Below are positions 2,452 through 19,353 of a stretch of DNA of 19,353 nt, one piece after another; the stretch's first letter is position 1, and the number at the start of each line of letters is the position of its first letter. Origin of the DNA: a virus (taxonomy: Duplodnaviria; Heunggongvirae; Uroviricota; Caudoviricetes). Location of the stretch: positions 1 through 19,353 of IMG/VR virus record IMGVR_UViG_2690316316_000017; one strand, given 5' to 3'. Position numbers and translations under genes: made by a program. Below the pieces are notes generated by a model that worked only from the letters and a program-made list of their open reading frames with translations, searched no databases and had not been told where the DNA came from.

Positions 2452-2573
2452 GTCTTTTTCCCTTCTGGTTAACATGACATACCAATAACTCTTGTCTAAA
2501 AAGCCAGCAAGATAAAAAGTCAGTATTCACGACCACCAGCGTGTTTACTGTACTGCACCAAGTTTACAGGTAC

Positions 2574-2594: not shown

Positions 2595-2728
2595 TTTAAG
2601 CTGTGTGGCGAAGTAACCACTCTTAACAGATTAAGATAAAATTTGCGGACCGCGGTAATTTTTTTTGCTAAATTAAAGCCATATAAAAATAAGCCCCATA
2701 AGAAATTATTAGCATACTAAGGTTTAGC

Positions 2729-3670: not shown

Positions 3671-3673
3671 GAT

Positions 3674-4117: not shown

Positions 4118-4140
4118 AAAGGGCAGAAATGCCCTTTTTT
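4116..4140. terminator. bidirectional rho-independent terminator between the cassette and Q
   Basis: AAAAAGGGCA-GAAA-TGCCCTTTTTT: perfect GC-rich stem flanked by an A-run and a T-run, abutting the cassette stop (4117) and the Q stop (4141). Confidence 0.7.
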
Positions 4141-4503: not shown

Positions 4504-4520
4504 CAACTTTCTCCACAAAA

Positions 4521-5510
4521 TCAGGCCAGCACGCCAATTGCCAGCGCACGATCGATAAAACGAAATATCAGCTCCAGCTGGGAGCCATACTTCTCTTCAA
4601 ATGCCACGGTATCCGCATGCAGCTCGTCGTGATGCTTTCTGCACAAAGGCAACACAAAGAGGTCATGCGCTTTTGTTCCCATTCCACCCTGACCGTGACC
4701 TATCAGGTGGTGGGGATCATCAGCGGGCTTTCCACAACATGCACACGGCTGTGTCTTAACCCAGCGCGTGTACTTTTCATTAACCCAGCGGCGACGTTTT
4801 GGGCGTAACATAAAAGACTCCGGCGACTCCGGATCCACTTTCAGCGCCAGCACCTTTTTCGCCTTATCCTGGATGATGCTGGTGGCAGGAACCGAAGGCA
4901 CAAGGTCACTTTCCCGGGTAACAGACGGCACAACAGGCTTCGGTAATCTCAGTGCCTTACGGGCTGCACTTTCCGGTAAGGCATCCGCCAGATCATTACG
5001 AATCAGCCACCAGCACAGTTCCGGCATTGTCACAACGTGACTGTCATCAAAACCGAGATCCCGACGCACAACAGACAACACCCAGCGGGCACAGTTATCC
5101 GTTGCCATTGATTCCAGCCGTTCCGTGAACTGATCGCGCAGCTGGTTATCGCAGTGCCAGCACAGACGGATTGCACCCGGAGCGTGTCGCATTGTGGTCA
5201 TGTTCTCGCTGTGCCAGTCGGAATGAGGCCACTGGCAGCCTTTTTCACGAAGTAACCAGCTTTCAAGACATTCCACGCCACCAGCACGACGGATCACTGC
5301 CTCATTGCGGAACACGGCCCGAACGGCAGGATCATCCGCCAGCGGTTGTGATGCCGCCGGAACGGCACCACTGGCGAAAGATGAATAACGCTCCGGCTCA
5401 GGCTCCAGCAGGACACGCCCCTGCATAAACAGGGGCATCAGCTCTGAACCTGGCCTGAACAATACGATCCCCATACGCGGGGCAATTTCAGGGGTCAGTA
5501 GTGCTCTCAC
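4521..5510 (-). CDS. DUF968-like phage protein (putative nuclease domain)
   Basis: C-terminal Cys/His-rich block (CACCGKPADDPHHLIGHGQGGMGTKAHDLFVLPLCRKHHDELH) resembles the DUF968 signature of lambdoid nin-region proteins. GTG start; exact start uncertain between 5516 and 5510. Confidence 0.65.
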   Translation of the reverse strand: MRALLTPEIAPRMGIVLFRPGSELMPLFMQGRVLLEPEPERYSSFASGAVPAASQPLADDPAVRAVFRNEAVIRRAGGVECLESWLLREKGCQWPHSDWHSENMTTMRHAPGAIRLCWHCDNQLRDQFTERLESMATDNCARWVLSVVRRDLGFDDSHVVTMPELCWWLIRNDLADALPESAARKALRLPKPVVPSVTRESDLVPSVPATSIIQDKAKKVLALKVDPESPESFMLRPKRRRWVNEKYTRWVKTQPCACCGKPADDPHHLIGHGQGGMGTKAHDLFVLPLCRKHHDELHADTVAFEEKYGSQLELIFRFIDRALAIGVLA

Positions 5511-5517
5511 GGTCACC

Positions 5518-6327
5518 TCAATGAACGGTATCGAGCAGCTTTAACAGCTCAGGGAATCGGGATTCGAAGAAATGCGGCTGCGTCTCGCGCGGATTTGCGG
5601 GACTGGTGATGTTCTTGCCGAACATGCAGCCTTTCGCTGTCAGCGACCAGAATTTTTTGATGTTGTTAATCGCGGTACGACTGTATCGTTCGCGCTGCTC
5701 GACGATCCCCAGTTTCACCATCTGGTGATATGCCTGATTAGCCGTCAGGCGTATACCATACTGTTTCAGCAGTGCACTCAGTGACAGTGTCGGGCGACTT
5801 GAGCCATCGTGTGCATCAGCAGGAGCATCAATGGCATAGCGCGGTGCCAGATTCGGTAAGCCAACAGCCTCCTGGAGTTTCTGACAGGCACCAAGCACAG
5901 ATGAGTTAGACAGGTTTAACTCCCGACGCATAAAGTCCAGCAGAATCACACCAGCCTGCATCTTGTCAGCAGCCTGTCCGGATAATTTTTCCGGTGCGCT
6001 GGTTACCATGTCGAAAGTACGGATCACCTTAAGATGGAATGACGGGCTTATCCACATTGCATAGGCATACACCAGTTCTTTGCAGACATACGTTCCCCGT
6101 TCATTTCCCCCATGAATCACACTCACCGGGTCAACACCCAAATTCTGGGTGTTGGTCAATTCATGAACAAGTTCAACAGTTTGTTGGCTGGAAAGAAACT
6201 TTCCTGGCTCCTTGGTTCTGGCATTTGCACCAGATGCTACTGCTGCGCGATGTAGATCGTTCAGGCTGTAACGCCCATAAACATCACGACGAACTTCAAT
6301 ACCATCAATGACCATCAGATTATTCAT
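5518..6327 (-). CDS. KilA-N domain antirepressor-like protein (Roi/Ant-like)
   Basis: N-terminal KilA-N-like block (...GTYVCKELVYAYAMWISPSFHLKVIRTF...). Start taken at the ATG at 6327 (MNNLMVIDG...), which has AGGAG 9 nt upstream, rather than the GTG used by the track. Confidence 0.7.
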   Translation of the reverse strand: MNNLMVIDGIEVRRDVYGRYSLNDLHRAAVASGANARTKEPGKFLSSQQTVELVHELTNTQNLGVDPVSVIHGGNERGTYVCKELVYAYAMWISPSFHLKVIRTFDMVTSAPEKLSGQAADKMQAGVILLDFMRRELNLSNSSVLGACQKLQEAVGLPNLAPRYAIDAPADAHDGSSRPTLSLSALLKQYGIRLTANQAYHQMVKLGIVEQRERYSRTAINNIKKFWSLTAKGCMFGKNITSPANPRETQPHFFESRFPELLKLLDTVH

Positions 6328-6346
6328 ACTTCGTTTCTCCTCTTGA

Positions 6347-6736
6347 TCAGGCGGCTGCACCCGCCGTTTTCTCGTACTTACTGATAGTGATCTCGACCTT
6401 CCCTTTCGGGATAACCGGTCCCCACTCCACCAGCATTCTTTTCACCTGACTGTCGTCTTCCCACACACCCGCGTGGGTCAGGGCGTCAAACAGCGCCTTG
6501 TTATAGTTGTCCAGATCGCGGATCCTGTTATCCGGAGGAAACAACACGATCTCCACTGAAGCAGGTGCCGACGTTGGTTTCGGCAGACGACGTAACTGCT
6601 CAATGATGGCGGCACACGCCGCGCTCTGAAATTTTCGCCCCGCCTCGCTTATCAGGCTCTTACCAGCAAATGCCCCTTTGTTGGGGTGTCGCCAGTACGT
6701 GTTCACGCTGGGCGGAAAAGGCAGTATTAGCTTCAT
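6347..6736 (-). CDS. rusA: RusA-family Holliday-junction resolvase (crossover junction endodeoxyribonuclease)
   Basis: 129 aa with N-terminal MKLILPFPPSVNTYW and acidic residues in the DLDNYNKALFDAL block, typical of RusA. ATGA overlap with the upstream MTase stop. Confidence 0.85.
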   Translation of the reverse strand: MKLILPFPPSVNTYWRHPNKGAFAGKSLISEAGRKFQSAACAAIIEQLRRLPKPTSAPASVEIVLFPPDNRIRDLDNYNKALFDALTHAGVWEDDSQVKRMLVEWGPVIPKGKVEITISKYEKTAGAAA

Positions 6737-7386
6737 GCCACCATCTCCCTGACCAGTTTTTCCGCCTGCTGGCGAACCTGCGCCAGAAATGCCTCACCAC
6801 ATGCCTCAAGTTCATCGCGCCCGATGTAGCTGATTGCCGGTCCCTTCCAGGTCTTGTCGAAAACAGCAATAGCACCAGCGAAGAAAGCACCTGTTGGCAC
6901 CTGCTTTTCGTCTTTCGGGATAAACCAGGCAGGCAGTTCAAAACCAATACGCCCGCGAATAAAAGCAATATGATCTGCACCTTCCGGCCACCACACTTCG
7001 CCGGTGGCAGCTTTGATCAGGAAAACATAGCGCCCGCCTTTATCACGCATGGCACTGGCATGCTTCATGATGTAACGCATGCCGGTGATGTATTGCCCCT
7101 CATGCTGACTGGCGCGGCTGTACGGGGGATTGCCAAAGGCAGCACCTTTAAGCTCCGCAAGACGTTCTGACCAGTCATGCGCCAGCGCGTTGTCTTCCGC
7201 CGTGTAATACGCGGCACATTTGGCGTTATCACCGTCAGTGAACAGATCCAGAACAAACGGACCAAACAAGGTGTTAATTCCCCAGAAAATGTTGTCCGGC
7301 GTGCGCCACTGATCGCCCACTTCCTTCAGTTCATGGGCTGGTTTGTTCCGCAGTTCTACCAGCGCCTGGCAATATTTATTACTCAT
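6733..7386 (-). CDS. phage Dam-like N6-adenine DNA methyltransferase
   Basis: 217 aa with the catalytic motif NPPY (GAAFGNPPYSRA), matching the phage N-6-adenine-methyltransferase family. Lies between the replication gene and rusA, as in other lambdoid phages. Confidence 0.8.
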   Translation of the reverse strand: MSNKYCQALVELRNKPAHELKEVGDQWRTPDNIFWGINTLFGPFVLDLFTDGDNAKCAAYYTAEDNALAHDWSERLAELKGAAFGNPPYSRASQHEGQYITGMRYIMKHASAMRDKGGRYVFLIKAATGEVWWPEGADHIAFIRGRIGFELPAWFIPKDEKQVPTGAFFAGAIAVFDKTWKGPAISYIGRDELEACGEAFLAQVRQQAEKLVREMVA

Positions 7387-7478
7387 TAAGCCCCCACGTA
7401 AAAAGCATCCGCAATGTCTCCGGAAGTACAGCCCGGATGGGCTTCAATGAATTTCTGAACGTCATTTAACAGACTCAT
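7386..7478 (-). CDS. possible 30-aa small protein, translationally coupled on both sides
   Basis: Hand translation: ATG at 7478 preceded by AGGGGGTGA, product MSLLNDVQKFIEAHPGCTSGDIADAFYVGA. Its TAA overlaps the MTase ATG (TAATG) and its start lies 5 nt after the replication-gene stop. Not in the ORF track. Confidence 0.3.
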   Translation of the reverse strand: MSLLNDVQKFIEAHPGCTSGDIADAFYVGA

Positions 7479-7480
7479 GA

Positions 7481-8473
7481 TCACCCCCTGAATCCTGCCG
7501 GGATCTGGCTGTAGTCCACGTTGTCGTAACTGGCTTTGAAGTACGGGTCTTCACGTTTTTCTGTGTGCGTGCTGACGGACGGCGATAAGCGCAGGGAAAG
7601 CTCATCCCATTTTTCCCGCAACTTCGACGGGCTGAGCACGTTACGGCACCAGAACGGATCGCGGCTGACGCGGCTGTACATCTCGCAGATTTGTTTGTGA
7701 GTACGACCATCCTGCACACACATCAGGCGAATTTCGTTTGCCCATGCTGTCCAGTTCGGTTCTTTGGGACGAACCACCTCGCCGTCACATTCGGCGGCCT
7801 GCTCGTACAGGGCGATGATTTTTTTCCAGAGCCACTGTGCGCAGGTCAAATCATCCTGCGTTCCCCACTGGCGCTTTTTAGGGCTGAATACAACCGCATC
7901 AGGATGGCGAGTTAAAAACTCCTGTTCAGCCGTTTGCGTGTCCGGTTGCGAAGCGTCCGGACGAGAAGAGGTTTTATTCTCTGTAGTAATCTCTGTTGTA
8001 TTCTCTGTAAGATCATTGGGCCATTTTGACCCGATGACAGCGTGTCGTTTTGAACCAATGGATCGTATCATTTTGCGCCCATCCATCAGGTCACTTTGAC
8101 CCGATGGAGAAGTGCATTTTGACCTGATGGATTCGTTCACTTTGACCTCTTCTAAAAGCTCACTTTCATAGTTGATCGTGTAGAAGTTGGTCATGTCACG
8201 CTTCGATTTATTGAGTTGCTCGCGACGCAAAACCCCAAGTGATTTCAGGCTTGCAAATGTGCGTTTCAGAGTGGACTCTGACCAGAACGGAAACTGCTCC
8301 AGCCACTGTTCTGTCGTGTTATAAACCCAGCGAATTCCGCCATGCTCAGTGCCTGAATTCGTTTCATTCAGCCAGTAATGAAGCTGCTGCAACACAATTG
8401 CCTCATTCAGACCAATACGGCATGCAAGATCACGATTTATCACAATGGGCTGGGATGTCATTAACAGGCTCAT
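7481..8473 (-). CDS. replication initiator protein (O-like, origin-binding) with internal iteron origin
   Basis: 330-aa ORF directly downstream of the cro operon. AGAGG 6 nt upstream of the ATG. Contains an iteron array inside the coding sequence, as lambda O contains ori. Family assignment is by position and architecture, not by recognised motif. Confidence 0.7.
   Translation of the reverse strand: MSLLMTSQPIVINRDLACRIGLNEAIVLQQLHYWLNETNSGTEHGGIRWVYNTTEQWLEQFPFWSESTLKRTFASLKSLGVLRREQLNKSKRDMTNFYTINYESELLEEVKVNESIRSKCTSPSGQSDLMDGRKMIRSIGSKRHAVIGSKWPNDLTENTTEITTENKTSSRPDASQPDTQTAEQEFLTRHPDAVVFSPKKRQWGTQDDLTCAQWLWKKIIALYEQAAECDGEVVRPKEPNWTAWANEIRLMCVQDGRTHKQICEMYSRVSRDPFWCRNVLSPSKLREKWDELSLRLSPSVSTHTEKREDPYFKASYDNVDYSQIPAGFRG
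8019..8150. repeat. iteron array (putative phage replication origin) inside the replication initiator gene
   Basis: Six direct repeats of about 17 bp, consensus TCAYTTTGACCYGATGG, at about 23-bp spacing (8021, 8046, 8068, 8091, 8114, 8137), flanked at 7975-8012 by the repetitive tract attctctgtagtaatctctgttgtattctctgtaag. Confidence 0.6.
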
Positions 8474-8642
8474 GACCGACCTCTATTTCCCTGAATTTAC
8501 GACGAAACTGTTCGAGCGGGCTGAAGCACTCATGCTCATAGCCTTCGCGGAGGTAGATAACCCGTTGTGTTTCCGGTTCCCAACGAATGACTCTGACGGG
8601 CACTCCGTAGTGATCTTTGAACCAGCGGTTAACTTGTCGCAA
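8430..8642 (-). CDS. hypothetical 70-aa protein (TTG start), overlaps the YmfM-like frame and the replication gene start
   Basis: Track ORF with a TTG start that has AAGGAG 8 nt upstream. Product is a balanced charged/hydrophobic sequence ([54 protein letters not shown]...). Overlaps 8483..8821 in another frame, so at most one frame is coding across 8483-8642. Confidence 0.3.
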
Positions 8643-8821
8643 AGGACTGTCTCCTTCTGCCGGTTGAAATCACCCACAGCCCACTCTGCAAAGCTGTGGG
8701 TTACAATTTCCCTGTCACCTGGTACATTTACTGCATAGCAATACTCCACCTTCGCTTTTCCACCCGGTACAGGAAGCGCAATCAGTTGCGAGCGACGGTA
8801 GTGTGTTGTTAAACTGTTCAT
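8483..8821 (-). CDS. YmfM-like protein (e14-type early gene), 112-aa ORF as drawn
   Basis: ATGA overlap with the upstream YmfL-like stop. Position and length match e14 ymfM as I recall it. The C-terminal 50 residues are low-complexity (S/A-rich) and overlap the better-looking TTG ORF, so the true 3' end is uncertain. Confidence 0.4.
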
Positions 8822-9402
8822 GCGTTAGTTTCTCCACAACCAGAAGCAATCGACGCCACGACGCCCGGAGCTGCACACTCGCGGGCGTTACTCTTTTCCG
8901 GCGCACAAAAAACACGAAATAACAGTGTTAAATGCTCCTGCCACTTCGCCATTACTTGGTAGCTGTTCTCTTCGATTTGCTCACGCTCAGCCTGGTCAAT
9001 AACTCCATCAGCAGTTGCCTTGCGTAAGTACTGGGAATGCTTGCCAATCCATTCTATTGACTCCATCAGCCGCTGATTAATGTCACCATTGTCAATGTCA
9101 TCAATGACCACCAGCGGCACAAACACCCCATTACTACGACGGGCTATTGCATCTGTTACATGCCTGGTACCACTGGCATCCTGTAAAACCATGGCCCACT
9201 CAAGTGGAAAAATTTGATCCCCACCGCTACGCAGTCTGTTATGCAATTGATCTTTTGCTGGGGTGATATCATCAGATTTATACAAACCAAGAATTTCTGC
9301 TGCTTCCTCATAGCCATGAGGTAAATCAGCAATCGTTCTTCGTATTGCTGCCACCAGCCATGCTGGTTGTTTATCAACTTTCCATTCAGGTTCTTTACCC
9401 AC
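8818..9402 (-). CDS. YmfL-like early protein (e14-type, putative regulatory), 194 aa, GTG start
   Basis: Long ORF directly downstream of cro. GTG at 9402 has GAGGAA 6 nt upstream. Size and position match e14 ymfL (recollection). Confidence 0.6.
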
Positions 9403-9429
9403 GGTTAATTCCTCATTTCTGTGGTGTTT

Positions 9430-9627
9430 TTATGCCGCAGCACTGTTAGTCTTTTGATATAAAGACACGTCAACTTTCAGTTTCCCGTTAGTAATTTTTT
9501 CTAACTGGTACGCTCGGCCTTCAGGAATAATCTCAGGCCACTCTGAAACAGACGGATGCTTAATACCTAGGGCTTCGGCGGTTTTACAAACTCCGCCGAA
9601 ATAATTAATCACGTCGGATTTCCGCAT
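9430..9627 (-). CDS. Cro-like HTH repressor, 65 aa
   Basis: Small ORF divergent from cI. GGGAGA 5 nt upstream of the ATG. HTH-like segment FGGVCKTAEALGIKHPSVSEW. Sits immediately downstream of the PR-like promoter and operator. Confidence 0.75.
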   Translation of the reverse strand: MRKSDVINYFGGVCKTAEALGIKHPSVSEWPEIIPEGRAYQLEKITNGKLKVDVSLYQKTNSAAA

Positions 9628-9654
9628 TTCTGTCTCCCGTTAAATTACGTTAAG

Positions 9655-9722
9655 CAGAAATGTAGGATATCCAACATGCCAATGTCAAGAATCCTACATG
9701 GGCATGTGGTAGGATTGCCTAC
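9655..9722. promoter_or_regulatory. OR-like operator/promoter region (PR for cro on the minus strand, PRM-like for cI on the plus strand)
   Basis: Operator TGTAGGATATCCAACATG (9661-9678) plus inverted half-site copies ATCCTACA (9691-9698) and GGTAGGATT (9709-9717). On the minus strand, TTGACA - 18 bp - TACATT with the operator in the spacer. cI ATG at 9723 has almost no leader. Confidence 0.6.
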
Positions 9723-10376
9723 ATGATGAACATGAGTGATCGTATTCGCCAAAGGCGAAAAGAACTGAACCTGACACAACAAGCACTGGCTGATTTGACT
9801 GGTGTGAACCGTGTCACGGTTACTGGATGGGAAAAGGACGACTACCAACCAAATGGAGCCAACCTTCAAGCCCTAGCCAACGCACTTAAATGCGATCCTC
9901 TGTGGCTTGTTAGCGGAAAAGGCTCGCCTGAACCAAAGATAAATCTAAAACCTGAAATATTCGCAGTTAAAAAAGTCCCCCTAATCTCGTGGGTTCAGGC
10001 GGGTTCATGGACAATGACGGAGCCTGGTGTCAGGAAAGAAGATGCTGAAGAGTGGGTTTATACTACCGCCCTTGTATCAGAAATGGCATTTGCACTACGG
10101 GTCCGTGGTGATTCAATGACCAATCCCCTCGGCTCACCATCGATACCAGAAGGTTCTATCGTTATCGTAGAGCCAGATATTATTGATACAGAGTGTATTA
10201 ACGGAAAAATCGTTGTTGCCCATATCAATGGTGGGCAAGAAGCGACACTCAAAAAATTTGTTGAGGACTGGCCGAACAGGTATCTCGTCCCACTAAATCC
10301 TAACTATAAAACTATTGAATGCGGTGAGAACTGCAGAATAGTTGGTCTTGTCAAACAAGTAATAATGGATTTTTGA
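9723..10376 (+). CDS. cI-type prophage repressor (HTH_XRE N-terminal domain plus LexA-like S24 autopeptidase domain)
   Basis: 217 aa. HTH LTQQALADLTGVNRVTVTGWE. Catalytic Ser in RVRGDSMTNP and Lys in GQEATLKKF, the Ser-Lys dyad of SOS-cleavable repressors. Divergent from cro. Confidence 0.9.
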   Translation: MMNMSDRIRQRRKELNLTQQALADLTGVNRVTVTGWEKDDYQPNGANLQALANALKCDPLWLVSGKGSPEPKINLKPEIFAVKKVPLISWVQAGSWTMTEPGVRKEDAEEWVYTTALVSEMAFALRVRGDSMTNPLGSPSIPEGSIVIVEPDIIDTECINGKIVVAHINGGQEATLKKFVEDWPNRYLVPLNPNYKTIECGENCRIVGLVKQVIMDF

Positions 10377-10396
10377 CACATCTTCCTCACTATCGC

Positions 10397-10422
10397 AAAA
10401 CCGGGGTATCCCCGGTTTTTTT
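10397..10422 (+). terminator. rho-independent terminator after cI
   Basis: AAAACCGGGG-TAT-CCCCGG-TTTTTTT beginning 21 nt after the cI stop. Confidence 0.7.
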
Positions 10423-10439
10423 ATGAGCCTATCTTTTTA

Positions 10440-10495
10440 TGTAGGATAACCAACATAAACTCTTGACACTCACATGTTGGATATCCTACATTTGT
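10440..10495 (+). promoter_or_regulatory. OL/PL-like operator-promoter module driving the plus-strand early operon
   Basis: TGTAGGATAACCAACAT (10440-10456) and inverted ACATGTTGGATATCCTACA (10472-10490) bracket TTGACA (10463-10468); -10 candidate TACATT (10487-10492) with 18-bp spacer. Almost identical to the PR module. Confidence 0.6.
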
Positions 10496-10650
10496 TTTTA
10501 GAGTTGTGGTGAATGCGCAGGCTGATGCGCGAAAGACATTGCAGCTATTGCGGAAAAGAGCTGTTCGGCGGGGCAATTAAACGCCCGTGAGAGTCTGAAA
10601 TAACCGCAAGCCGGAGATCAGCACCGGTCACCACAACAGCCACTGCTTTG

Positions 10651-10698
10651 GCGGTACCAGTTTGTACACTTGCTTCCGGCTGGTACCGCTCTTTTTAC
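10651..10698 (+). terminator. terminator-like hairpin in the PL leader, followed by a boxA-like motif
   Basis: GCGGTACCAG - 19 nt - CTGGTACCGC (perfect 10-bp arms) followed by TCTTTTT. The T-tract is part of GCTCTTTTTACAA, which resembles the boxA consensus. Confidence 0.4.
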
Positions 10699-10833
10699 AA
10701 AACAGAGAAGAGCATCACCGGACGACGGGCTCATAACCCAATCCATCCGGGCGGCTGCCACCGCAGGTGTTCTTCTCTGTTTTGTGGAGAAACCAACCGA
10801 CCTTACAGGGTCGATATGATGAGGAGCAGCAAA

Positions 10834-11196
10834 ATGGCTAGCGAACGCAGTACTGATGTGCAGGCATTTATCGGGGAGCTGGACGGCGGCGTATTTGAAA
10901 CCAAAATCGGCGCTGTTCTCAGTGAAGTCGCTTCCGGTGTGATGAACACGAAAACCAAAGGTAAGGTCTCGCTCAACCTGGAAATCGAACCGTTTGATGA
11001 GAACCGTGTGAAAATCAAACACAAACTCTCATATGTTCGCCCGACTAACCGCGGGAAAATTTCTGAAGAAGACACCACCGAAACGCCGATGTATGTCAAT
11101 CGCGGTGGTCGCCTGACTATTCTGCAGGAAGACCAGGGACAATTACTGACTCTTGCCGGTGAACCTGACGGAAAACTCCGCGCAGCAGGTCATTAA
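10834..11196 (+). CDS. hypothetical early protein, 120 aa (YfdP-like by position and size)
   Basis: Track ORF 10648..11196 trimmed to the ATG at 10834 (MASERSTDVQ...), which has GAGGAG 7 nt upstream. First gene after a 330-nt leader. Size matches K-12 yfdP from memory. Confidence 0.55.
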   Translation: MASERSTDVQAFIGELDGGVFETKIGAVLSEVASGVMNTKTKGKVSLNLEIEPFDENRVKIKHKLSYVRPTNRGKISEEDTTETPMYVNRGGRLTILQEDQGQLLTLAGEPDGKLRAAGH

Positions 11197-11261
11197 TATC
11201 GTTCTTAATTAACTGATTATTTATCTCATCACTGAATATCTTTATATAGTGAGGACTTATT

Positions 11262-12086
11262 ATGTCTCAGAACTTAGACGCAACCGCAATTAATCAAATC
11301 CATGCCCTTATTTCTGCTCAGGGTGTTAATGAAATTATCAGTAAGATTGGTGCCGATGCTGTGGCATTGCCTGAGAATTTCCGCATTCATGATCTGGAAA
11401 AATTTAATTTAAATCGCTTCCGTTTCCGTGGTGCGCTTTCCACTGCCAGTATCGATGACTTTACCCGTTATTCTAAAGATCTTGCAGATGAAGGCACCCG
11501 CTGCTTTATCGATGCCGATAATATGCGTGCCGTCAGTGTGCTTAACCTGGGTACTATTGATGAACCAGGTCACGCAGATAACACCGCCACTCTCAAACTG
11601 AAAAAGACAGCACCGTTCTCTGCCCTGTTGTCTGTTAACGGCGAGCGTAACTCCCAGAAATCACTGGCAGAATGGATTGAAGACTGGGCCGACTACCTTG
11701 TGGGCTTTGATGCTAATGGTGACGCCATTCAGGCAACAAAAGCGGCGGCGGCAATCCGTAAAATCACGATTGAAGCAAACCAGACCGCTGATTTTGAAGA
11801 TAATGACTTCAGCGGCAAACGCTCCCTGATGGAATCTGTCGAAGCGAAGACCAAAGACATTATGCCAGTGGCATTTGAATTTAAATGCGTTCCATTTGAA
11901 GGCCTGAAAGAACGTCCGTTTAAATTACGACTCAGCATTATCACTGGCGATCGTCCTGTACTGGTTCTGCGCATTATTCAGCTGGAAGCGGTGCAGGAAG
12001 AAATGGCTAACGAATTTCGTGATCTGCTTGTTGAGAAATTCAAAGACAGCAAAGTAGAAACCTTTATTGGTACTTTCACCGCCTGA
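11262..12086 (+). CDS. yfdQ: YfdQ-like protein (DUF2303 family), 274 aa
   Basis: GAGGA 6 nt upstream of the ATG. Length equals K-12 yfdQ as I recall it and it sits directly upstream of an HD-domain gene, the KplE1 yfdQ-yfdR arrangement. Symbol is by synteny and size, not alignment. Confidence 0.55.
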
Positions 12087-12098
12087 TTTCATTACTGC

Positions 12099-12122
12099 AA
12101 ATGCCCCTGCGGGGGCATTTAT
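12099..12122 (+). terminator. intra-operon hairpin (possible attenuator/weak terminator) after the yfdQ-like gene
   Basis: ATGCCCC-TGCG-GGGGCAT (7-bp GC-rich stem) followed by TTTAT; the T-tract is short. Confidence 0.35.
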
Positions 12123-12214
12123 GGAAACGTAATTAACTCAATAATCACCGGATGGTGAGGGCTTCCTTTTACCAGAATTCAGTGCGGTGCAGCGCAAATA
12201 ACGTGGAGAACAAA

Positions 12215-12751
12215 ATGTCATTTATTAAAACTTTTTCTGGGAAGCATTTTTATTATGACAGGATAAATAAAGACGACATCGTTATTAACGATATCGCGGT
12301 TTCCCTTTCAAATATCTGTCGCTTTGCAGGACATCTTTCACACTTCTACAGCGTCGCCCAACATGCGGTTCTTTGCAGCCAACTGGTACCGCAGGAATTT
12401 GCTTTTGAAGCGTTAATGCATGATGCAACAGAAGCATATTGCCAGGACATCCCCGCACCACTGAAACGCCTTCTTCCTGACTATAAACGGATGGAAGAAA
12501 AAATAGACGCCGTAATCCGTGAGAAATACGGGTTACCTCCTGTTATGAGCACGCCAGTGAAATATGCCGATCTCATTATGCTGGCAACCGAACGCCGCGA
12601 TCTCGGGCTTGATGATGGCTCTTTCTGGCCTGTACTGGAAGGTATCCCGGCGACAGAGATGTTCAAAGTTATTCCACTGTCACCAGGCCATGCCTACGGG
12701 ATGTTTATGGAACGTTTTAACGAGTTATCGGAGTTACGCAAATGCGCATGA
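12215..12751 (+). CDS. yfdR: HD-domain phosphohydrolase, YfdR-like 5'-deoxynucleotidase, 178 aa
   Basis: Track ORF trimmed to the ATG at 12215, which has GGAGA 5 nt upstream. HD metal-binding motifs H (SVAQHAV) and HD (ALMHDATEAY). Length equals K-12 yfdR (recollection). Confidence 0.7.
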   Translation: MSFIKTFSGKHFYYDRINKDDIVINDIAVSLSNICRFAGHLSHFYSVAQHAVLCSQLVPQEFAFEALMHDATEAYCQDIPAPLKRLLPDYKRMEEKIDAVIREKYGLPPVMSTPVKYADLIMLATERRDLGLDDGSFWPVLEGIPATEMFKVIPLSPGHAYGMFMERFNELSELRKCA

Positions 12752-13104
12752 ATGTTTTCGAAATGGAAGGGGTTCTTCGCGGGAAATGTGTACCGCGAGA
12801 TCTGAAAGTGAACGAAACAAATGCTGAGTACCTGGTACGTAAATTCGATGCGCTTGAAGCTAAATGTGCGGCACTGGAAAACAAAATAATACCAGTGTCA
12901 GTTGAACTGCCACCAGCAAATGAAAGTGTTCTGTTATTTGATGCTAACGGAGAAGGCTGGCTAATTGGCTGGCGTTCTCTCTGGTACACCTGGGGACAAA
13001 AAGAAACCGGAGAATGGCAGTGGACATTTCAGGTCGGGGACCTTGAAAACGTCAATATCACTCACTGGGCAGTAATGCCGAAAGCACCGGAGAATAAGAA
13101 ATGA
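12742..13104 (+). CDS. YfdS-like protein with DUF551-like C-terminal region, 120 aa
   Basis: GGAG 8 nt upstream of the ATG. C-terminal W-rich block GEGWLIGWRSLWYTWGQKETGEWQW...THWAVMP resembles the C-terminus of the 396-aa protein at 15001..16191. Confidence 0.6.
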   Translation: MRMNVFEMEGVLRGKCVPRDLKVNETNAEYLVRKFDALEAKCAALENKIIPVSVELPPANESVLLFDANGEGWLIGWRSLWYTWGQKETGEWQWTFQVGDLENVNITHWAVMPKAPENKK

Positions 13105-13304
13105 GCGTGATAAAAACTCATACAGGAATTGTTATCACCCGAGACGGTCCGCAGGTAAAAAAACTGCACCAGACAAAGCGGATGTGGGTCGTCGGAAAAA
13201 ACGAGTTTTACCACAAAGAAACCGGACGCCGCCACTTTGCAGAAAATACGCGCCGCCGACTGCTGATCGACAGCATCAAGCCTATCGAGGTGATGCATGT
13301 TTAA
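13101..13304 (+). CDS. hypothetical small basic protein, 67 aa
   Basis: ATGA overlap with the upstream stop; GGAGA 7 nt upstream of the ATG. Confidence 0.5.
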   Translation: MSVIKTHTGIVITRDGPQVKKLHQTKRMWVVGKNEFYHKETGRRHFAENTRRRLLIDSIKPIEVMHV

Positions 13305-13536
13305 CCAGAACGAAAAATCTATCGCTCAAATTGCTGAGTATATCCCACGTGCGTGCCGGGGTATGCAGTTGCAGGAAGCCAAAGCGCGCCTGGAGAAAAA
13401 AATTGCGCTCTATATCGATGACGGCTGTGATGCTGCCGTTCTTAACGCAGCGTTCGCGCCAGCTCTTAACAGTCATACGCGGGAGTCTTTTTTTTCGCGC
13501 ATCGCAGCGCAGATCCGTAAAGGAGGCAACCAGTGA
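13297..13536 (+). CDS. hypothetical protein, 79 aa
   Basis: ATG with GAGGTG upstream; overlaps the upstream stop by 8 nt and the next gene by GTGA. Confidence 0.5.
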   Translation: MFNQNEKSIAQIAEYIPRACRGMQLQEAKARLEKKIALYIDDGCDAAVLNAAFAPALNSHTRESFFSRIAAQIRKGGNQ

Positions 13537-14231
13537 GCGAGATTAACTATCAGGCTCTGCGACTGGCGGCAGAAAATGCAACACCAGGCGAATGGTGTGC
13601 TGATGACTACCATGGAGTAATTGCCGATGCCGGACTGAACGCCAATTACTACATAGCATCATGCTCAGGACCGGATAATCGCTCCAATAAACGATTCATA
13701 GCCGCAGCCAATCCGGCTACCGTGCTGGCACTGCTGGATGAGAACGAAAGCATGTGCCGCGACCTCATTGCTCGCAATGGTGAGATTGAAGGGCTTCGAA
13801 AACTGGTTGCTGAACTTGAGGAGACAAAATCAAAACTCAACGAGCAGCGTGAATATTACGAAGGTGTTATCTCGGATGGAAGTAAGCGTATTGCTGAACT
13901 GGAGAAAAGCGAAGAGCAACTCATCAGCGAGCGTGATCATGCTGAGTCTGCTTTAGCTGATATGTATTTTGCAGCAACCGGGGATAGGCCGGAGTGGAGC
14001 AACTTGTTCGGCTTTTCAGATGCTGTAGATGCCGTGGTTGACAGAATTGCTGATTTAGAAGCTAAACAGCCATCGCCAGTAGTACCGGAAGGACTGATTA
14101 AAGCGGTGCGTTTTTATGAGCAGGTAAAACGTGAGAACCCGCCAGTCGAAACCGGAGCATGGAAAGACGCTGTTGACTGGGTGCTCAAAGAGGCTTGCCC
14201 GGCTGTAAACATTGGCATCAAAGGAGAGTGA
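13533..14231 (+). CDS. Ea22-like coiled-coil early protein, 232 aa (GTG start)
   Basis: GTG at 13533 has AAGGAGG 6 nt upstream. N-terminus MSEINYQALRLAAENATPGEW resembles ead/Ea22-like proteins (recollection). Central region is heptad-like and charged. Confidence 0.55.
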   Translation: MSEINYQALRLAAENATPGEWCADDYHGVIADAGLNANYYIASCSGPDNRSNKRFIAAANPATVLALLDENESMCRDLIARNGEIEGLRKLVAELEETKSKLNEQREYYEGVISDGSKRIAELEKSEEQLISERDHAESALADMYFAATGDRPEWSNLFGFSDAVDAVVDRIADLEAKQPSPVVPEGLIKAVRFYEQVKRENPPVETGAWKDAVDWVLKEACPAVNIGIKGE

Positions 14232-14233
14232 GA

Positions 14234-14725
14234 GTGCAGATTTCACCGGTTACTCTTCGTGTTGCGAAGGCGTTTATATCCAGACATCACCGACACAATA
14301 AACCCCCGGTGGGGCATAAATTCAGCATTGGTCTGAGAAATGATGCCGGAGAATTGATAGGTGTGGCGACAGCCGGTAGACCTGTTGCACGACATTTGGA
14401 CGATGGATTAACGCTTGAAGTAAATCGCACATGTACCACAGGAGAACGCAACGCTAACAGCGCGCTTTATGGTGCTGTCTGGCGGGCAGCAAAGGCTATG
14501 GGTTATCAACGTTGTATTACGTACACCCAGGCAGATGAATCAGGAGCATCTCTTCGCGCAGTTGGTTTTGTTCGTGTGAAAGAGCTTCCTCCAAGAAAAA
14601 GCTGGGCGGAATCAAGCGTCGCCCTGCGGAGTAAACGCGATCCGGTCGGAAACGGTGGTGTTCCTCGTGTGCTCTGGGAAATCAGGAGAATGAGTACCAC
14701 TGGCATTCGCATCAAAGGAGAGTGA
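14234..14725 (+). CDS. hypothetical protein, about 163 aa (GTG start)
   Basis: Track ORF 14195..14725 trimmed to GTG 14234, which has AAGGAG 7 nt upstream inside the 17-bp junction repeat. Ends with ...IRIKGE, as the previous gene ends with ...IGIKGE. Confidence 0.5.
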   Translation: MQISPVTLRVAKAFISRHHRHNKPPVGHKFSIGLRNDAGELIGVATAGRPVARHLDDGLTLEVNRTCTTGERNANSALYGAVWRAAKAMGYQRCITYTQADESGASLRAVGFVRVKELPPRKSWAESSVALRSKRDPVGNGGVPRVLWEIRRMSTTGIRIKGE

Positions 14726-14726
14726 T

Positions 14727-14990
14727 ATGGCAACTTTGACAAAAAAGGAACAGGCATGGTTGAGCGAATTACAGAACGTTCTTGATCGCTGCCCGTCACC
14801 GAAAAAAATTGGTTTTTACACCATTGGCGATAAAAACATTTACCTGTATGACCTACGCCGCATGGATGAAATCATGGAGGCTCTTGATAATCGTTCGTCA
14901 ATGGATTGGTGTGTTGCTGTCCATGATATGAATGCCGGATTTGAAGAAAAGATTTTGTTCCCCTCGTCAGTTGAAAGCACAGCGGGTTAA
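14727..14990 (+). CDS. hypothetical protein, 87 aa
   Basis: ATG 1 nt after the upstream stop, with the SD supplied by the junction repeat. Confidence 0.55.
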   Translation: MATLTKKEQAWLSELQNVLDRCPSPKKIGFYTIGDKNIYLYDLRRMDEIMEALDNRSSMDWCVAVHDMNAGFEEKILFPSSVESTAG

Positions 14991-15000
14991 GGAGTAACAC

Positions 15001-16191
15001 ATGACCACTATTACCAAAGAGCGACTACTGACAATCAAGCAGTGGCGCGAAACATACGGACCTGGTAGCAACGTTGTACTGCCAGCAGAAGAAGCGGAAG
15101 AACTGGCACGAATTGCTCTGGCATCGCTGGAAGCAGAGCCTGTGGCGTCATGCATTATTGAAGATGGGTGCATGTGTGTTGACGGGTTCGGTGAGTATGT
15201 TGGTCACTCGCTGCCTGATGGAACGCACCAGCTATACGCCGCCCCGCCAGTGCCTGATAAGTTGCCGCGTGAATACAGAAACGGTTGGCCTCTTGCGTAT
15301 AGTGATTATGCTGAAGGCTGGAACGACTGCCGCGAAGCCATGCTTCAGTCCGGAAACTTTCGGGAAAACAAGAATTCGTCAACCAATAATTTTCGGGAAA
15401 TCGCGGAAACGTCAACCAACTATCCGGTAATTCCTAGTGAGGTGTTGTCCGCAATCCTGAAGGTTGCCAAGATTCGTGCCGATTTCAATGATTTTGACGG
15501 TGACAGGCGAGGTATCGGTGATTGTCTGGATGAGGCCGAGCAAGAGCTTATCGTTACCATTAACAAATATGCCAGTCGGTTGGCAGTAGAGCCGGTAGTG
15601 CCTGCTGTTCTGGAACGTTTGCGAACCATTGTAGCGGACCCACGCGCATTACCTCGCAGAAAAGAATGGGTTAGTGGGCAGCAGTACAGTTACGTACTTC
15701 TCGAAAACGTAGAAGCTATGGTTGATGAAGCCTGCCACGCTGCCATGCTTCAGGGTAGCCAACCTGTAAGCCAAACTTACAACTTGCCAGAATTAATCGA
15801 AGGCATGGAAGTTTCCATTGATGTAAGCACTTGTGATGCTGATTTAGGTAATCGCTATTTCGGCACCGTCACCGAGGCGTTAGAACTTGATACAGCCAAG
15901 AATGGTTACATCCTCCTGGTTCAGGACGCAGAGCCAAACTTCGATGTAAATGGCAACTCTCCGGGAACTCCGGATAGTTGGATAAGCTGTAGTGATCGAA
16001 TGCCTGAAAAGGGCCAGAACGTGCTTATTTCGGTGAATTTCGATAGCTCTCTGGTTGAACCGCTAATATGCTCCGCACGCTATACCGGAAGCACCTTTCG
16101 GCGCGGAGATGCAACGATTAAGCCGGGTAATGGTATTGAGCAAGCAACTCACTGGATGCCGCTACCGGAACCGCCGCAGGAGGTGAAGTGA
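15001..16191 (+). CDS. DUF551-domain phage protein, 396 aa
   Basis: AAGGAG 6 nt upstream of the ATG. C-terminal block SWISCSDRMPEKGQNVLISVN...THWMPLPEPP is typical of DUF551. Contains a 33-bp in-frame tandem duplication. Confidence 0.7.
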   Translation: MTTITKERLLTIKQWRETYGPGSNVVLPAEEAEELARIALASLEAEPVASCIIEDGCMCVDGFGEYVGHSLPDGTHQLYAAPPVPDKLPREYRNGWPLAYSDYAEGWNDCREAMLQSGNFRENKNSSTNNFREIAETSTNYPVIPSEVLSAILKVAKIRADFNDFDGDRRGIGDCLDEAEQELIVTINKYASRLAVEPVVPAVLERLRTIVADPRALPRRKEWVSGQQYSYVLLENVEAMVDEACHAAMLQGSQPVSQTYNLPELIEGMEVSIDVSTCDADLGNRYFGTVTEALELDTAKNGYILLVQDAEPNFDVNGNSPGTPDSWISCSDRMPEKGQNVLISVNFDSSLVEPLICSARYTGSTFRRGDATIKPGNGIEQATHWMPLPEPPQEVK

Positions 16192-16763
16192 TGAACAACT
16201 TAATGATCGACCTTGAGACGATGGGGAAAAATAAGGATGCACCGATCGTTTCCATTGGCGCGGTGTTCTTCACTCCAGAAACCGGAGACATCGGACAAGA
16301 ATTCTATACGGTTGTTAGCCTGGAAAGTGCTATGGGGCAAGGAGCTACACCTGACGGCGATACCATCCTGTGGTGGTTGAAACAAAGCCCTGAAGCACGA
16401 GCTGCAATCTGTATTGATGATACTTTGTCGATCAGCGATGCACTCTCTGAACTGAACCATTTCATTAACCGGCACGCAGACAATACGAAATATTTAAAAG
16501 TCTGGGGTAACGGAGCCACCTTCGACAACGTAATTTTACGTGGGGCTTATGAGCGAGCAGGACAAATCTGTCCATGGGCGTACTGGAATGACCACGATGT
16601 ACGCACGATCGTTACGCTTGGGCGTTTCATCGGATTCGACCCCAAAATGGACATGCCTTTCGATGGCGAACGGCACAACGCCCTGGCTGATGCCCGTCAT
16701 CAGGCAAAATATGTTTCCGCTATCTGGCAGAAATTAATTCCTGCCACCAGCACAGAATTATGA
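16191..16763 (+). CDS. DEDD-family 3'-5' exonuclease (DnaQ/epsilon-like), about 190 aa
   Basis: Exo I motif MIDLETMG and Exo III motif HNALADARH. GGAGG 7 nt upstream of the ATG at 16191, which overlaps the upstream stop. Confidence 0.75.
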   Translation: MNNLMIDLETMGKNKDAPIVSIGAVFFTPETGDIGQEFYTVVSLESAMGQGATPDGDTILWWLKQSPEARAAICIDDTLSISDALSELNHFINRHADNTKYLKVWGNGATFDNVILRGAYERAGQICPWAYWNDHDVRTIVTLGRFIGFDPKMDMPFDGERHNALADARHQAKYVSAIWQKLIPATSTEL

Positions 16764-16799
16764 TTTTCCCGGGTGCAGCCGGTTTTGATGGAGAAAATT

Positions 16800-17081
16800 A
16801 TGAACACCTTGTTTTTACTGATGGCTGAATTCAATACCCCTAACATTGAACTCTCAGCAGTTAGCCAAAAGTACTTTGGCATGAGTCCAGCCACGGCAGA
16901 AGCAAAAGCAAACGCTTGTAAGTTGCCCGTTCCAACATATCGCATCGGCACATCACAAAAAGCAAAACGTTGCATCAATATTCAGGATCTTGCGGAATAC
17001 ATAGACAAAAGACGAGAAGAAGGACGTATCGAGTGGGAACAGGTCAGAACAGGCAAACAGAAGGGCAAAGAACATCACTAA
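16800..17081 (+). CDS. PrtN-family DNA-binding protein (putative excisionase-like regulator), about 93 aa
   Basis: Track ORF 16773..17081 trimmed to the ATG at 16800, which has GGAGA 5 nt upstream. N-terminus MNTLFLLMAEF resembles PrtN/excisionase-like proteins (recollection). Last gene of the operon. Confidence 0.5.
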   Translation: MNTLFLLMAEFNTPNIELSAVSQKYFGMSPATAEAKANACKLPVPTYRIGTSQKAKRCINIQDLAEYIDKRREEGRIEWEQVRTGKQKGKEHH

Positions 17082-17083
17082 AG

Positions 17084-17110
17084 AAAAAACCCGCCTAAAG
17101 GCGGGTTTTC
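17084..17110. terminator. bidirectional rho-independent terminator
   Basis: AAAAAA-CCCGCC-TAAA-GGCGGG-TTTTC between the convergent genes ending at 17081 (plus) and 17129 (minus). Confidence 0.7.
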
Positions 17111-17128
17111 AAAAAGCACCAGCTATGA

Positions 17129-17302
17129 TCATGCTGCTTTGCGACGACGAAGCTTACCCTGCTGCTCTTTACCAGAGACAGTAGCGTGAGTGAACGCATT
17201 AGGAGCAGCCTTCATCAGAACTTCAACAGCAGCACCCATACCTGCGAATGCTTTCATTGTGTCGAACTTAACCTGTGGCTTGGTTGCTTTTTGATCTTTC
17301 AT
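17129..17302 (-). CDS. small protein, 57 aa, unknown function
   Basis: Hand translation: ATG at 17302 with GGGAG 6 nt upstream; product MKDQKATKPQVKFDTMKAFAGMGAAVEVLMKAAPNAFTHATVSGKEQQGKLRRRKAA. Codon choice (CGT, GGT, GCT, CTG, AAA) resembles highly expressed E. coli genes. Not in the ORF track. Confidence 0.45.
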   Translation of the reverse strand: MKDQKATKPQVKFDTMKAFAGMGAAVEVLMKAAPNAFTHATVSGKEQQGKLRRRKAA

Positions 17303-17498
17303 AGAAAACTCCCGAGACAGTAAAGGCGTCTCTAACCCTCTCTTTAAAGCTAGCTTGTTTCGCTAACTTATGCCAATCGATCATGTCGATTGGTGACATC
17401 GTTTCTTAGTAGTTTAAGCACAAAACGACTGCCATAGATGTACCTTTAAGGTAATCTGGACGGGTATCCTACAATTTGTAGCCCCTTCTCGTCTATAC

Positions 17499-18035
17499 CT
17501 ACTGAGCAAATTTAAGAAAGATATCCTGCAGCTCATCAATGACTGCAGACATCACATAACCGCACTGTTCCATGCGGAAACCAAAAGACTCGTAATACTG
17601 CACCAGTTCTGGTACTGGCTCTACAATGTGGACAACTTTACATTCAACAGCTTTACAAAATATAAAAGCACTCATAAGAGTGAGTAAAACCATGCGCCCT
17701 TTCAATGGGTGAGATTCATCTTCTCTAGAAAACCTTTCGATCATATGGATACGAAAGATGTTTTCTTCAACCCCATAAACACAAATTGCTGCTCCTGATG
17801 GTATTCCCTGAACCCGACCTTGCTGAACAAGTTTTATGCAGAACTCATACTTTTCTCTGGAGTTGCCATAGGTGCTTAACGCATAGTCCCATTCAAGCTC
17901 ACCATAGCCACCACACAGAATCTTGTAATCATCATCACTGAGCGGACCAACAGCAAGAGGTAAGCCGACATGATCAATAATCAACTGGATATTGTTACGT
18001 ACAGATTGACCTATCTCGTCTAGGGTAAGCATCAT
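17499..18035 (-). CDS. hypothetical 178-aa protein, possibly GNAT-fold acetyltransferase-like
   Basis: Track ORF. C-terminal ...VPELVQYYESFGFRME resembles the GNAT beta6-alpha4 region, but no clear acetyl-CoA motif A is present. AT-rich codon usage. Confidence 0.45.
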   Translation of the reverse strand: MMLTLDEIGQSVRNNIQLIIDHVGLPLAVGPLSDDDYKILCGGYGELEWDYALSTYGNSREKYEFCIKLVQQGRVQGIPSGAAICVYGVEENIFRIHMIERFSREDESHPLKGRMVLLTLMSAFIFCKAVECKVVHIVEPVPELVQYYESFGFRMEQCGYVMSAVIDELQDIFLKFAQ

Positions 18036-18574
18036 AGACTCTCAAGCGGAACACTAAAAATCTCATTATATCTCATTCTGATGCCCCGCATGGATTACAC
18101 CTTGAAATGAAAACACCGGGTTCCCAATAGGCACCCACAAAGTGTATAACTACTTGTTTTTCAAAAGCGGTACATCCTATCGAGCATTGGTGCAACGCTA
18201 AACCGACCACTCCAGTGAACGTCAGTTTTTTCAGGCATTGCGCTGGTTTGGTTGATTTTTTGCATTTCAGAATTACCGTGCATTTTCAAATGTAGAGATT
18301 ATTTTATCGATATATCATGGGTTTATGTTATTCAGCATCACTATTCAGGAGGCTCAATAGCGGGGTACTATACCATAACAACAGGAAGCGCCTGTCTCAT
18401 TGCAAAAGAAAATTGAGATCCTCTCAAGGCATGAAGCTCTCACGAAGTGATGGAAATAATCTTATTAGCCGTTAACTTTGTTAAGGCCAATGATAAACAA
18501 TCCAGGTTCGACGATAAATAAAAAATCACACATTAAACTCTGGTGATATATCTCCCTGCTAATAGCATTGATAG

Positions 18575-18610
18575 AGAAAAAAGAACCCAATAAATATTGG
18601 GTCCTTTTAT
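18575..18610 (-). terminator. rho-independent terminator downstream of the AT-rich right-end gene
   Basis: ACCCAATA-AA-TATTGGGT stem with T-rich tracts on both strands (minus-strand TTCTTTTTTCTC), about 45 nt after the stop at 18646. Confidence 0.5.
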
Positions 18611-18645
18611 ATAATGCCTTCCATACTATCGAAGAACTTCACATA

Positions 18646-19353
18646 TTATTTCTCCGATTTAACCCCGAACAAATCATAAATTAATTTAGAAGTGTCTGTA
18701 AGTATTTTAATCTCTTCCTTTGAGGTTGGGTCAAACGACTTCGCGAAGCTAATTAATTGTGGTGCAGCATCTCGCATTTTGCTTAAAATATCAGGATCGA
18801 GCGTTCCTTCATTCACCAGATGTGACATCTTATCCAGATAGCCATCAAAATTCATTTCTCCCCCATCAGCCAGACGCTTCATCTCTCCCAGGTACTTCTT
18901 CATATCACGTTGAGATAATTTTTCAAACTGAGCTTTCAGGTAGCTCTCATTATTTTCATTAATATACACTGTTTCTGATAAATCTGCGTAGGCACTAGAA
19001 TATGAAAGTGAAATTAACAGCGAAGCAAATAATTTTAAGCTGTTGTCATCATGTTCCTGGCAGGCATTAACAAACGTTAAAAAACCAGAACCTATTGCTT
19101 GAAAATGTATATTCGCTAAAGGTTCATTATCCTTAGATTCCTCATAAAATAGCTGAACCGTGGAGGGAAGGCCATTCTTAGTTTCTACATCAAAAGTACA
19201 TTGTTCAATGGGAGTCGCATCTTTATTATCCCCAGGATTACATATACTATTAATCGCGAAATGAAAAATAGCCCGGTCAACAACTGATGCAATAAAGTCA
19301 CGATCGTTTAAATCCTCATCAGTGCAATCGTCAATATACTTATTGACCCACAT
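18646..19353 (-). CDS. hypothetical AT-rich protein, at least 235 aa; N-terminus may lie beyond the window edge
   Basis: Track ORF running to the window end. Strongly AT-biased codons. No recognisable integrase or recombinase motifs. Confidence 0.55.
   Translation of the reverse strand: MWVNKYIDDCTDEDLNDRDFIASVVDRAIFHFAINSICNPGDNKDATPIEQCTFDVETKNGLPSTVQLFYEESKDNEPLANIHFQAIGSGFLTFVNACQEHDDNSLKLFASLLISLSYSSAYADLSETVYINENNESYLKAQFEKLSQRDMKKYLGEMKRLADGGEMNFDGYLDKMSHLVNEGTLDPDILSKMRDAAPQLISFAKSFDPTSKEEIKILTDTSKLIYDLFGVKSEK

Follow-up and report, generated by a model that had tools for sequence, protein, structure and literature searches.

Integrases specific for dusA target the 5' end of this gene, swap in sequence borne by the element and leave semi-conserved attachment (att) repeats (Farrugia et al. 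2015, PMC4482086). In the Shiga toxin 2 (Stx2) phage 1720a-02, integration takes place 100 bp into dusA, with the core situated inside TCCAGTCGAGCATGGGAGC; a phage open reading frame (ORF), 'dusA-prime', is fused in frame at attL, and the formation of attP needs int (Balasubramanian et al. 2019, PMC6328086). The stretch studied here (IMG/VR record IMGVR_UViG_2690316316_000017, positions 1 to 19,353; hereafter the window) ends with a region (17084-19353) in which an excisionase-like gene (xis) is followed by no integrase gene (int). An earlier note on this region had described it as a single accessory island occupying the position expected for int. Our comparison leaves little doubt, as far as sequence can tell, that it is instead the int-distal junction of a lambda-like, mEp460-type prophage inserted about 100 bp inside chromosomal dusA: the prophage ends at 18180-18187, and what follows to the right is K-12-like chromosome. 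This junction model agrees with the experiments on the sister phage 1720a-02, and the naming convention used for that phage (Balasubramanian et al. 2019, PMC6328086) makes the window junction attR.

The junction was located by a four-way alignment of window 17950-18700, the uninterrupted yjbM-dusA region of K-12 (attB), the attP region of mEp460, and the dusA-int junction of strain fS25a, in which the whole window is matched at 99.8%. The crossover core between phage and chromosome is TCGAGCAT (18180-18187; no strand assigned), which corresponds to nt 97-104 of dusA; its 8 bp are identical across attB, attP, attL and attR, and it fits the published attB of 1720a-02, TCCAGTCGAGCATGGGAGC, together with the core given there (PMC6328086). 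To the left of TCGAGCAT, the window tracks the attP of mEp460 and not K-12, whereas the far junction of fS25a tracks K-12. To the right, the window equals K-12 (2 mismatches in about 520 aligned columns), whereas the far junction of fS25a tracks the phage and mEp460 diverges. This reciprocal pattern of the window and fS25a junctions is what site-specific recombination at the 8-bp core predicts. The phage P arm (18036-18179, 144 bp, no strand assigned) follows mEp460 attP with a few mismatches as far as the core and is not related to the K-12 sequence, and the two 104-bp copies of the dusA 5' end, identical at 85 of 104 positions, form imperfect direct repeats at the flanks of the prophage.

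Within the P arm, CGGGTTCCCA is found at 18117-18126, with a perfect 10-nt inverted copy in the P' arm beside int. The motif GGTTCCC occurs once in the P arm (at the same window positions); in the P' arm, in the interval that separates int from the phage dusA 5' end, it is repeated in inverted orientation (L002 7645-7654; L004 ~6390-6450). The copies of CGGGTTCCCA and GGTTCCC are candidate arm-type binding sites of the integrase.

Phage 1720a-02 also matched the window, whose core and core position are the same as those of that phage. The elements with dusA-specific integrases (mEp460, 1720a-02) and the window prophage are alike in the divergent tyrosine integrase, in an insertion depth of about 100 bp, in the short core within a semi-conserved repeat, and in the phage-supplied in-frame 5' end, with the native 5' end left at the other junction. 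Between mEp460 and the window prophage nothing essential is different in this respect: window 16700-18286 is matched at 97% identity from the exonuclease gene through gp24, gp23 and the dusA-derived repeat, and it is the rest of the prophage (late genes, other cargo) that differs.

Everything to the right of the core (18188 onward) is, on this alignment, conserved chromosome, made up of the remnant of dusA, the region upstream of that gene, and yjbM. The displaced 5' end of the native dusA (18179-18283, minus strand) starts with an ATG at 18283, and its codons 1-35 are identical to those of K-12 DusA; past codon 35, the translated frame continues with five codons of phage DNA (RMYRF) and then a stop, and RefSeq lists the remnant as a partial tRNA-dihydrouridine synthase. 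The native dusA upstream region and the yjbM-dusA intergenic DNA (18284-18578, no strand assigned) are near-identical to K-12 and chromosomal, and the terminator of yjbM was placed by a terminator scan at 18579-18608 on the minus strand. The roughly 600 bp of non-coding DNA described earlier thus correspond to 610 bp (18036-18645) that do lack a long ORF, but they contain the recombination core and the 35-codon dusA remnant.

The three minus-strand ORFs noticed before, of 57 amino acids (aa; 17129-17302), 178 aa (17499-18035) and 235 aa (18646-19353), are present as described. The largest, which had been taken for an island gene of unknown function, is chromosomal yjbM (DUF2713), an AT-rich gene outside the prophage. 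It matches Pfam PF10897 (E 1e-165) over positions 1-235 of 235, and the ORF is exactly 235 aa long as in K-12, the last base of the window falling on the yjbM ATG; K-12 b4048 occupies the same place relative to dusA. The AT-richness reported for the region is real, with G+C contents of 0.43 (17111-18179) and 0.37 (18188-19353) as against 0.48 in the early-left operon (10800-17081), and to the right of the core it belongs to the chromosomal yjbM locus. We considered the yjbM region as horizontally acquired phage cargo and rejected this, as it is found at the same site beside intact dusA in K-12. When the last 2.65 kb of the window were used as query, a match over at least 80% of the length, i.e., the whole junction, was present in 332 of 5426 complete E. 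coli genomes, whereas a partial match, with the yjbM-containing part of the query, was present in 4383. The annotation beneath the genome matches reads 3'-5' exonuclease, PrtN family protein, two hypotheticals, partial 'tRNA-dihydrouridine synthase' and DUF2713 protein. The DUF2713 gene itself is a single ORF of 338 aa in some strains, split into yjbL and yjbM in K-12, and annotated as frameshifted in fS25a (L003 46217-47202); yjbM is its C-terminal part.

Concerning the integrase, profile searches bear out that there is none in 17084-19353: neither the 57-, 178- and 235-aa ORFs nor the 42-aa ORF of the dusA remnant match an integrase family in Pfam, PHROG or NCBIfam. The earlier note had supposed the gene to be either lost or situated beyond the right edge of the window. 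In fS25a, it occupies the opposite prophage end, some 52 kb leftward of the junction seen in the window: the left prophage end carries dusA (345 aa), a divergent tyrosine integrase and DinI. The integrase (365 aa, L004 6456-7553) matches Pfam Phage_integrase (E 1e-20) and lies 88 bp from the start of the rebuilt dusA. The hybrid DusA is of full length, 345 aa, of which the first 35 residues are phage-encoded (MHDNHETLK...APMLD) and the remainder is host sequence; the attP of mEp460 encodes a like surrogate.

An integrase just past the right edge of the window, with three genes and 600 bp of cargo between xis and int, would fit the excised form, since in the free phage int follows about 340 bp beyond the 178-aa gene; the order in mEp460 is exonuclease, excisionase, gp24 (57 aa), gp23 (178 aa), about 340 bp containing attP, integrase and DinI. 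In the integrated form, however, K-12-type chromosome lies to the right of 18187, the 235-aa gene is yjbM, and an extension to the right, as had been proposed for finding int and attL, leads in the near-identical fS25a into the rest of the split DUF2713 gene (yjbL/yjbM), zur, yjbJ, dinF and lexA. Such a position of int is hardly conceivable. That the prophage is defective and has lost its integrase is likewise very improbable. Some carriers of the junction are indeed degraded: the prophage of 01G17CRGN001 is only about 17 kb long, with truncated structural genes, and in that of fS25a IS66 has inserted and the portal gene is frameshifted. Yet both keep an intact 365-aa integrase beside dusA, full-length int is found in 728 of the 5426 complete E. 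coli genomes, and the same module is present in mEp460, which has been isolated as a phage and carries the joined attP.

On this model, the arrangement comes about as follows. In the circular phage, the order is early-left operon, xis, 57-aa gene, 178-aa gene, P arm, core TCGAGCAT, the phage's first 35 dusA codons with their own upstream region, and int. The tyrosine integrase recombines TCGAGCAT of the phage with its identical counterpart in dusA. As a result, the dusA body becomes linked, at the far (attL) end, to int and to the 5' end supplied by the phage, such that a full-length DusA of 345 aa is kept, and xis and the two small genes remain at the window end, next to the native dusA 5' end that was displaced, with its promoter region, and to yjbM. 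As attP is situated between xis and int, no integrase can come after xis in the integrated state. The attP-int-xis region of lambda likewise comprises a tyrosine integrase and a small directionality factor that ends the early-left operon, and cargo is tolerated nearby. In lambda, however, int and xis are neighbours on one side of attP and remain together after integration, whereas here attP lies between them and they come to opposite prophage ends.

The xis gene in question (16800-17081, plus strand), the last of the early-left operon, encodes a PrtN-family excisionase (recombination directionality factor) candidate, with matches to Pfam PF11112 (E 4e-23) and to PHROG 1300 'excisionase' (E 8e-40). 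Its longest ORF starts with GTG at 16773; the likely start is the ATG at 16800, which is also the choice of RefSeq, and the mEp460 homologue is annotated as excisionase. Two points weigh against the junction model: the int end lies outside the window, its position being taken from three sources, the 99.8%-identical genome, 331 further genomes that share the junction, and the free phage; and the role of the PrtN-family protein as excisionase, which appears probable, has annotation as its basis.

The anomaly of an xis without int is thus already explained by known biology, the dusA-specific integrase system: it is the textbook outcome of the placement of attP in dusA phages, neither a lost integrase nor a 2-kb defence island. 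For scanning other sequences it can be put as a rule that an early-left operon ending in xis, followed by a short remnant of a housekeeping gene, marks a prophage boundary. The junction also delimits a slot for variable cargo, from xis to attP, in a phage group to which Shiga-toxin phages belong. In this sense, the proposal that cargo lies between xis and int holds insofar as the two genes are separated and the xis-attP space is such a slot, but not insofar as a three-gene island was meant; and the expectation that sites beside int and xis gather cargo applies to the roughly 1 kb that holds the 57-aa and 178-aa genes, everything from 18188 rightward being chromosome.

The only cargo in the region is a moron-like cassette of about 1 kb (approximately 18078-17085, minus strand), made up of a -10 element, the 178-aa gene, a spacer, the 57-aa gene and a terminator. 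Similarity between cassette copies extends from just upstream of the sequence TAnAAT (window 18065-18070) to the terminator hairpin. In the window, this sequence is a TATAAT -10-like element on the minus strand, 30 nt upstream of the 178-aa gene, and constitutes a candidate cassette promoter; TAnAAT is kept at the same position in 7 of 13 aligned cassettes (window, L009, L018-L021 and, shifted, L026). No good -35 element was found for the TATAAT element, and a promoter scan made no call there. At the other end, the terminator scan placed a G+C-rich hairpin (17085-17110, no strand assigned) between the convergent xis and 57-aa genes, with the better T-run on the minus strand. The PrtN-like gene and the terminator that had been described as ending the early-left (PL-like) operon are both present (ORF end at 17081). 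The hairpin, however, also lies 3' of the small gene where xis is missing, in loci of Citrobacter, Pseudescherichia, Franconibacter and Enterobacter, and this conservation with the 57-aa gene in unrelated contexts makes it the cassette's at least as much as the operon's. It can serve both convergent transcripts. As the scan detected no terminator between the native dusA promoter and the cassette, read-through from this promoter is possible, and the cassette would be expressed in lysogens either in this way or from its own -10 element.

The first cassette gene (17499-18035, minus strand) encodes a 178-aa protein (mEp460 gp23; PHROG 4350, function unknown), for which an AlphaFold2 model (predicted local distance difference test score, pLDDT, 92.7, built from 32 sequences) was subjected to a fold search. 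The model predicts a GNAT alpha/beta fold, and a viral structure library returned generic GNAT matches only. A profile search of the full library found the family in only 93 clusters among 1.84 billion representative proteins. Homologues occur across Enterobacterales, and a Shewanella homologue is 39-43% identical. The invariant residues are H109-P-L, G113 and Y148-x3-G-F. The loop H109-P-L-K-G113-R-M is invariant, and of the acetyl-CoA loop Q/R-x-x-G-x-G/A only the central Gly is kept; Y148, which is invariant within YYxSFGF, presumably sits where many GNATs have their catalytic Tyr.

The second cassette gene (17129-17302, minus strand) encodes a 57-aa protein (mEp460 gp24, PHROG 2741) with a basic C-terminus (...GKLRRRKAA). 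Its conservation exceeds that of the 178-aa protein and includes the basic tail (...QGKxRRRKAA), the end of which, RRRKAA, may resemble ClpX recognition signals. The AlphaFold2 model (pLDDT 61) contains a single helix, residues 15-32, the rest being of low confidence. No match was found in Pfam or NCBIfam, and the only PHROG matched is one of unknown function.

The spacer between the two genes (17303-17498, about 190 nt, minus strand) contains conserved hairpins at 17441-17453, 17373-17393, 17347-17369 and 17314-17332, of which the last three are kept among Enterobacteriaceae and the last one adjoins the ribosome-binding site of the 57-aa gene. Nine aligned sequences give a consensus fold of 24 pairs, 6 of them with compensatory changes, and one-sided changes lead mostly to G-U on the minus strand. 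In this alignment, 86.6% of the cells are paired, compared to 82.6% in shuffled alignments (0 of 500 reach the observed value) and 23-44% with the partners slid; the covariation score, from these nine sequences, was attained by 10 of 500 shuffles, and the single-sequence fold has a z of -2.3. A search of 16700-19353 against Rfam gave sub-threshold terminator-like matches only and no family in the spacer. Together, these values are suggestive of a structured intergenic RNA within a two-gene transcript. A small RNA, sRNA-17 (193 nt, prophage-borne, repressed by ArcA), has been described from E. coli K1 RS218 (PMC7719688). It was considered as a possible occupant of the cassette spacer in mEp460-like prophages and rejected, since its probe and primer map to 10564-10695 instead. 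There, on the minus strand of the window, it is situated between the cI-like repressor gene (9723-10376) and yfdP, with exact matches of the Northern probe and of the full-length forward primer.

The two genes are closely linked. Each of the 19 loci examined has a small-gene homologue 93-248 nt downstream of the GNAT-fold gene and in the same orientation, and this pairing holds down to about 40% sequence identity; in phage Eeyore, the small gene is unannotated and the GNAT-fold protein is 42% identical. The position between xis and attP is shared by the window and mEp460. The commonest context is that between the antiterminator Q and the lysis genes, as found in Citrobacter freundii-type (P0018) loci L009-L011, Atlantibacter, Cronobacter, Serratia, Enterobacter mori and phage Eeyore. 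Of the further cassettes, that of Edwardsiella is situated just upstream of the holin gene in a locus where no Q gene was called, that of Franconibacter follows RusA in a locus where no lysis genes were identified, that of Brenneria lies 40 nt downstream of a repressor gene, and that of Photorhabdus is within a tail-gene cluster. In Escherichia sp. ESNIH1 (L019 4001-4873), the cassette occupies a non-phage site between an EamA transporter gene and Rieske/ferredoxin oxygenase genes; as it stands there alone, with no phage genes nearby, the cassette moves independently of prophages. Among the 5426 complete E. coli genomes, the 178-aa gene is present in 358 and the 57-aa gene in 562. An uncharacterised cassette of a GNAT-fold and a small protein is thus carried by about 7% of complete E. 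coli genomes, including many O157:H7, O111 and O26 strains.

In sister dusA phages, the xis-attP slot holds other occupants (L006 4643-5631; L007 4643-5631; L008 4407-5451; L031 2900-3890). A SocA/Panacea-domain protein with a 139-aa partner and the 57-aa gene is found in SKA5 and Lys8385Vzw, and a Panacea-domain protein with a 182-aa partner in phiSTEC1575-Stx2k; 1720a-02 has the 182-aa gene, and PhiR40_1 a pair annotated as YafO toxin and antitoxin. Four proteins of the Panacea pairs (L006, L008) were scanned with PADLOC 2.0, with no match.

Concerning the function of the cassette, we tentatively regard it as a toxin-antitoxin or abortive-infection-type defence system, in which a GNAT acyltransferase effector might be restrained by a small, labile, basic partner. 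Worded more broadly and held with the same reserve, it may be a lysogen-expressed acyltransferase with a small controlling partner, either toxin-antitoxin-like or an exclusion module. Consistent with this are the linkage of both genes at 19 of 19 loci over a span reaching down to about 40% identity, the mobility of the cassette among classic moron slots, including one just downstream of a repressor gene, the presence of toxin-antitoxin-type pairs (Panacea-domain and YafO-annotated) in the same slot of sister phages, and the 57-aa protein with one confidently predicted helix only.

Several observations weigh against an acyltransferase under the control of its neighbour. The 178-aa protein has no Pfam or NCBIfam match at E<=0.1 and no meaningful sequence match in the PDB, ten remote relatives have no Pfam match at E<=0.01, and its acetyl-CoA loop motif, HPLKGRM, is atypical; since family matches are missing even for remote members, the family cannot be placed within the GNATs by sequence. 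Defence profiling, which the earlier note had proposed for the 178-aa and 235-aa proteins, gave no PADLOC 2.0 match at E<=1 for either of them, nor for the 57-aa protein. In about 200 E. coli genomes, the 57-aa gene is present but the GNAT gene is not, and the former persists in phages SKA5 and Lys8385Vzw, where the GNAT gene is replaced. Finally, an enzyme gene that comes first and a small gene that comes second after a spacer of about 190 nt are unlike known operons of GNAT toxins with ribbon-helix-helix (RHH) antitoxins. For TacT, AtaT and KacT, which are tRNA-acetylating toxins, the RHH gene is situated upstream, overlapping or abutting the toxin gene, whereas here only the 144-bp attachment arm lies upstream and the 57-aa partner follows about 190 nt downstream. 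The 178-aa protein has no sequence similarity to these toxins, and its structural likeness to them is no greater than to many other GNATs.

Nearly as likely as the toxin-antitoxin-type reading, and ranking just below it, is that of a lysogenic-conversion or lifecycle accessory, in which the acyltransferase could act on a small molecule or protein of host or phage and the 57-aa protein would be unrelated or merely co-regulated. It is a possible reading, though a rather doubtful one: the substrates of GNATs are highly diverse, the commonest position between Q and the lysis genes would place the cassette in the late transcript, and the 57-aa gene can stand alone; the pair is, however, kept in 19 of 19 contexts of the GNAT gene, including the non-phage chromosomal site, which argues for a functional link. 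To return to the partner-controlled acyltransferase, we consider it conceivable, if somewhat unlikely, that GNAT-fold gene, 57-aa gene and hairpin spacer together make up an undescribed mobile module of Enterobacterales prophages, in which the small basic partner would be largely unstructured, toxin-antitoxin-like or of the exclusion type and expressed in lysogens. A literature search on either cassette protein, by accession and by GNAT, moron and defence terms, returned nothing specific and no paper citing them.

Morons are self-contained inserts of promoter, gene and terminator, reportedly defined for lambdoid phages by Hendrix and colleagues. The cassette resembles them in its compactness, its own terminator, the conserved -10 element (with a weak -35; a candidate promoter), and a G+C content below that of its neighbours, as well as in its presence or absence between near-identical phages and its occurrence in several classic moron slots. 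It differs from them by having two genes with a conserved spacer that may be structured and by being found also outside prophages.

Two other features of the window were noted. A second AT-rich insert (2729-4117, plus strand, G+C content 0.33-0.38) runs opposite to the late genes and codes for two proteins, a DUF6731 protein of 313 aa and one of 147 aa. It is situated between a DNA methyltransferase gene and the antiterminator Q gene and is cargo-like, and neither protein matches PADLOC. Furthermore, the prophage carries tRNA genes for Arg(UCU) and with a CAU anticodon (Ile according to RefSeq) at 766-842 and 923-998 on the minus strand, upstream of the late region, as is typical of Stx-type lambdoid phages.

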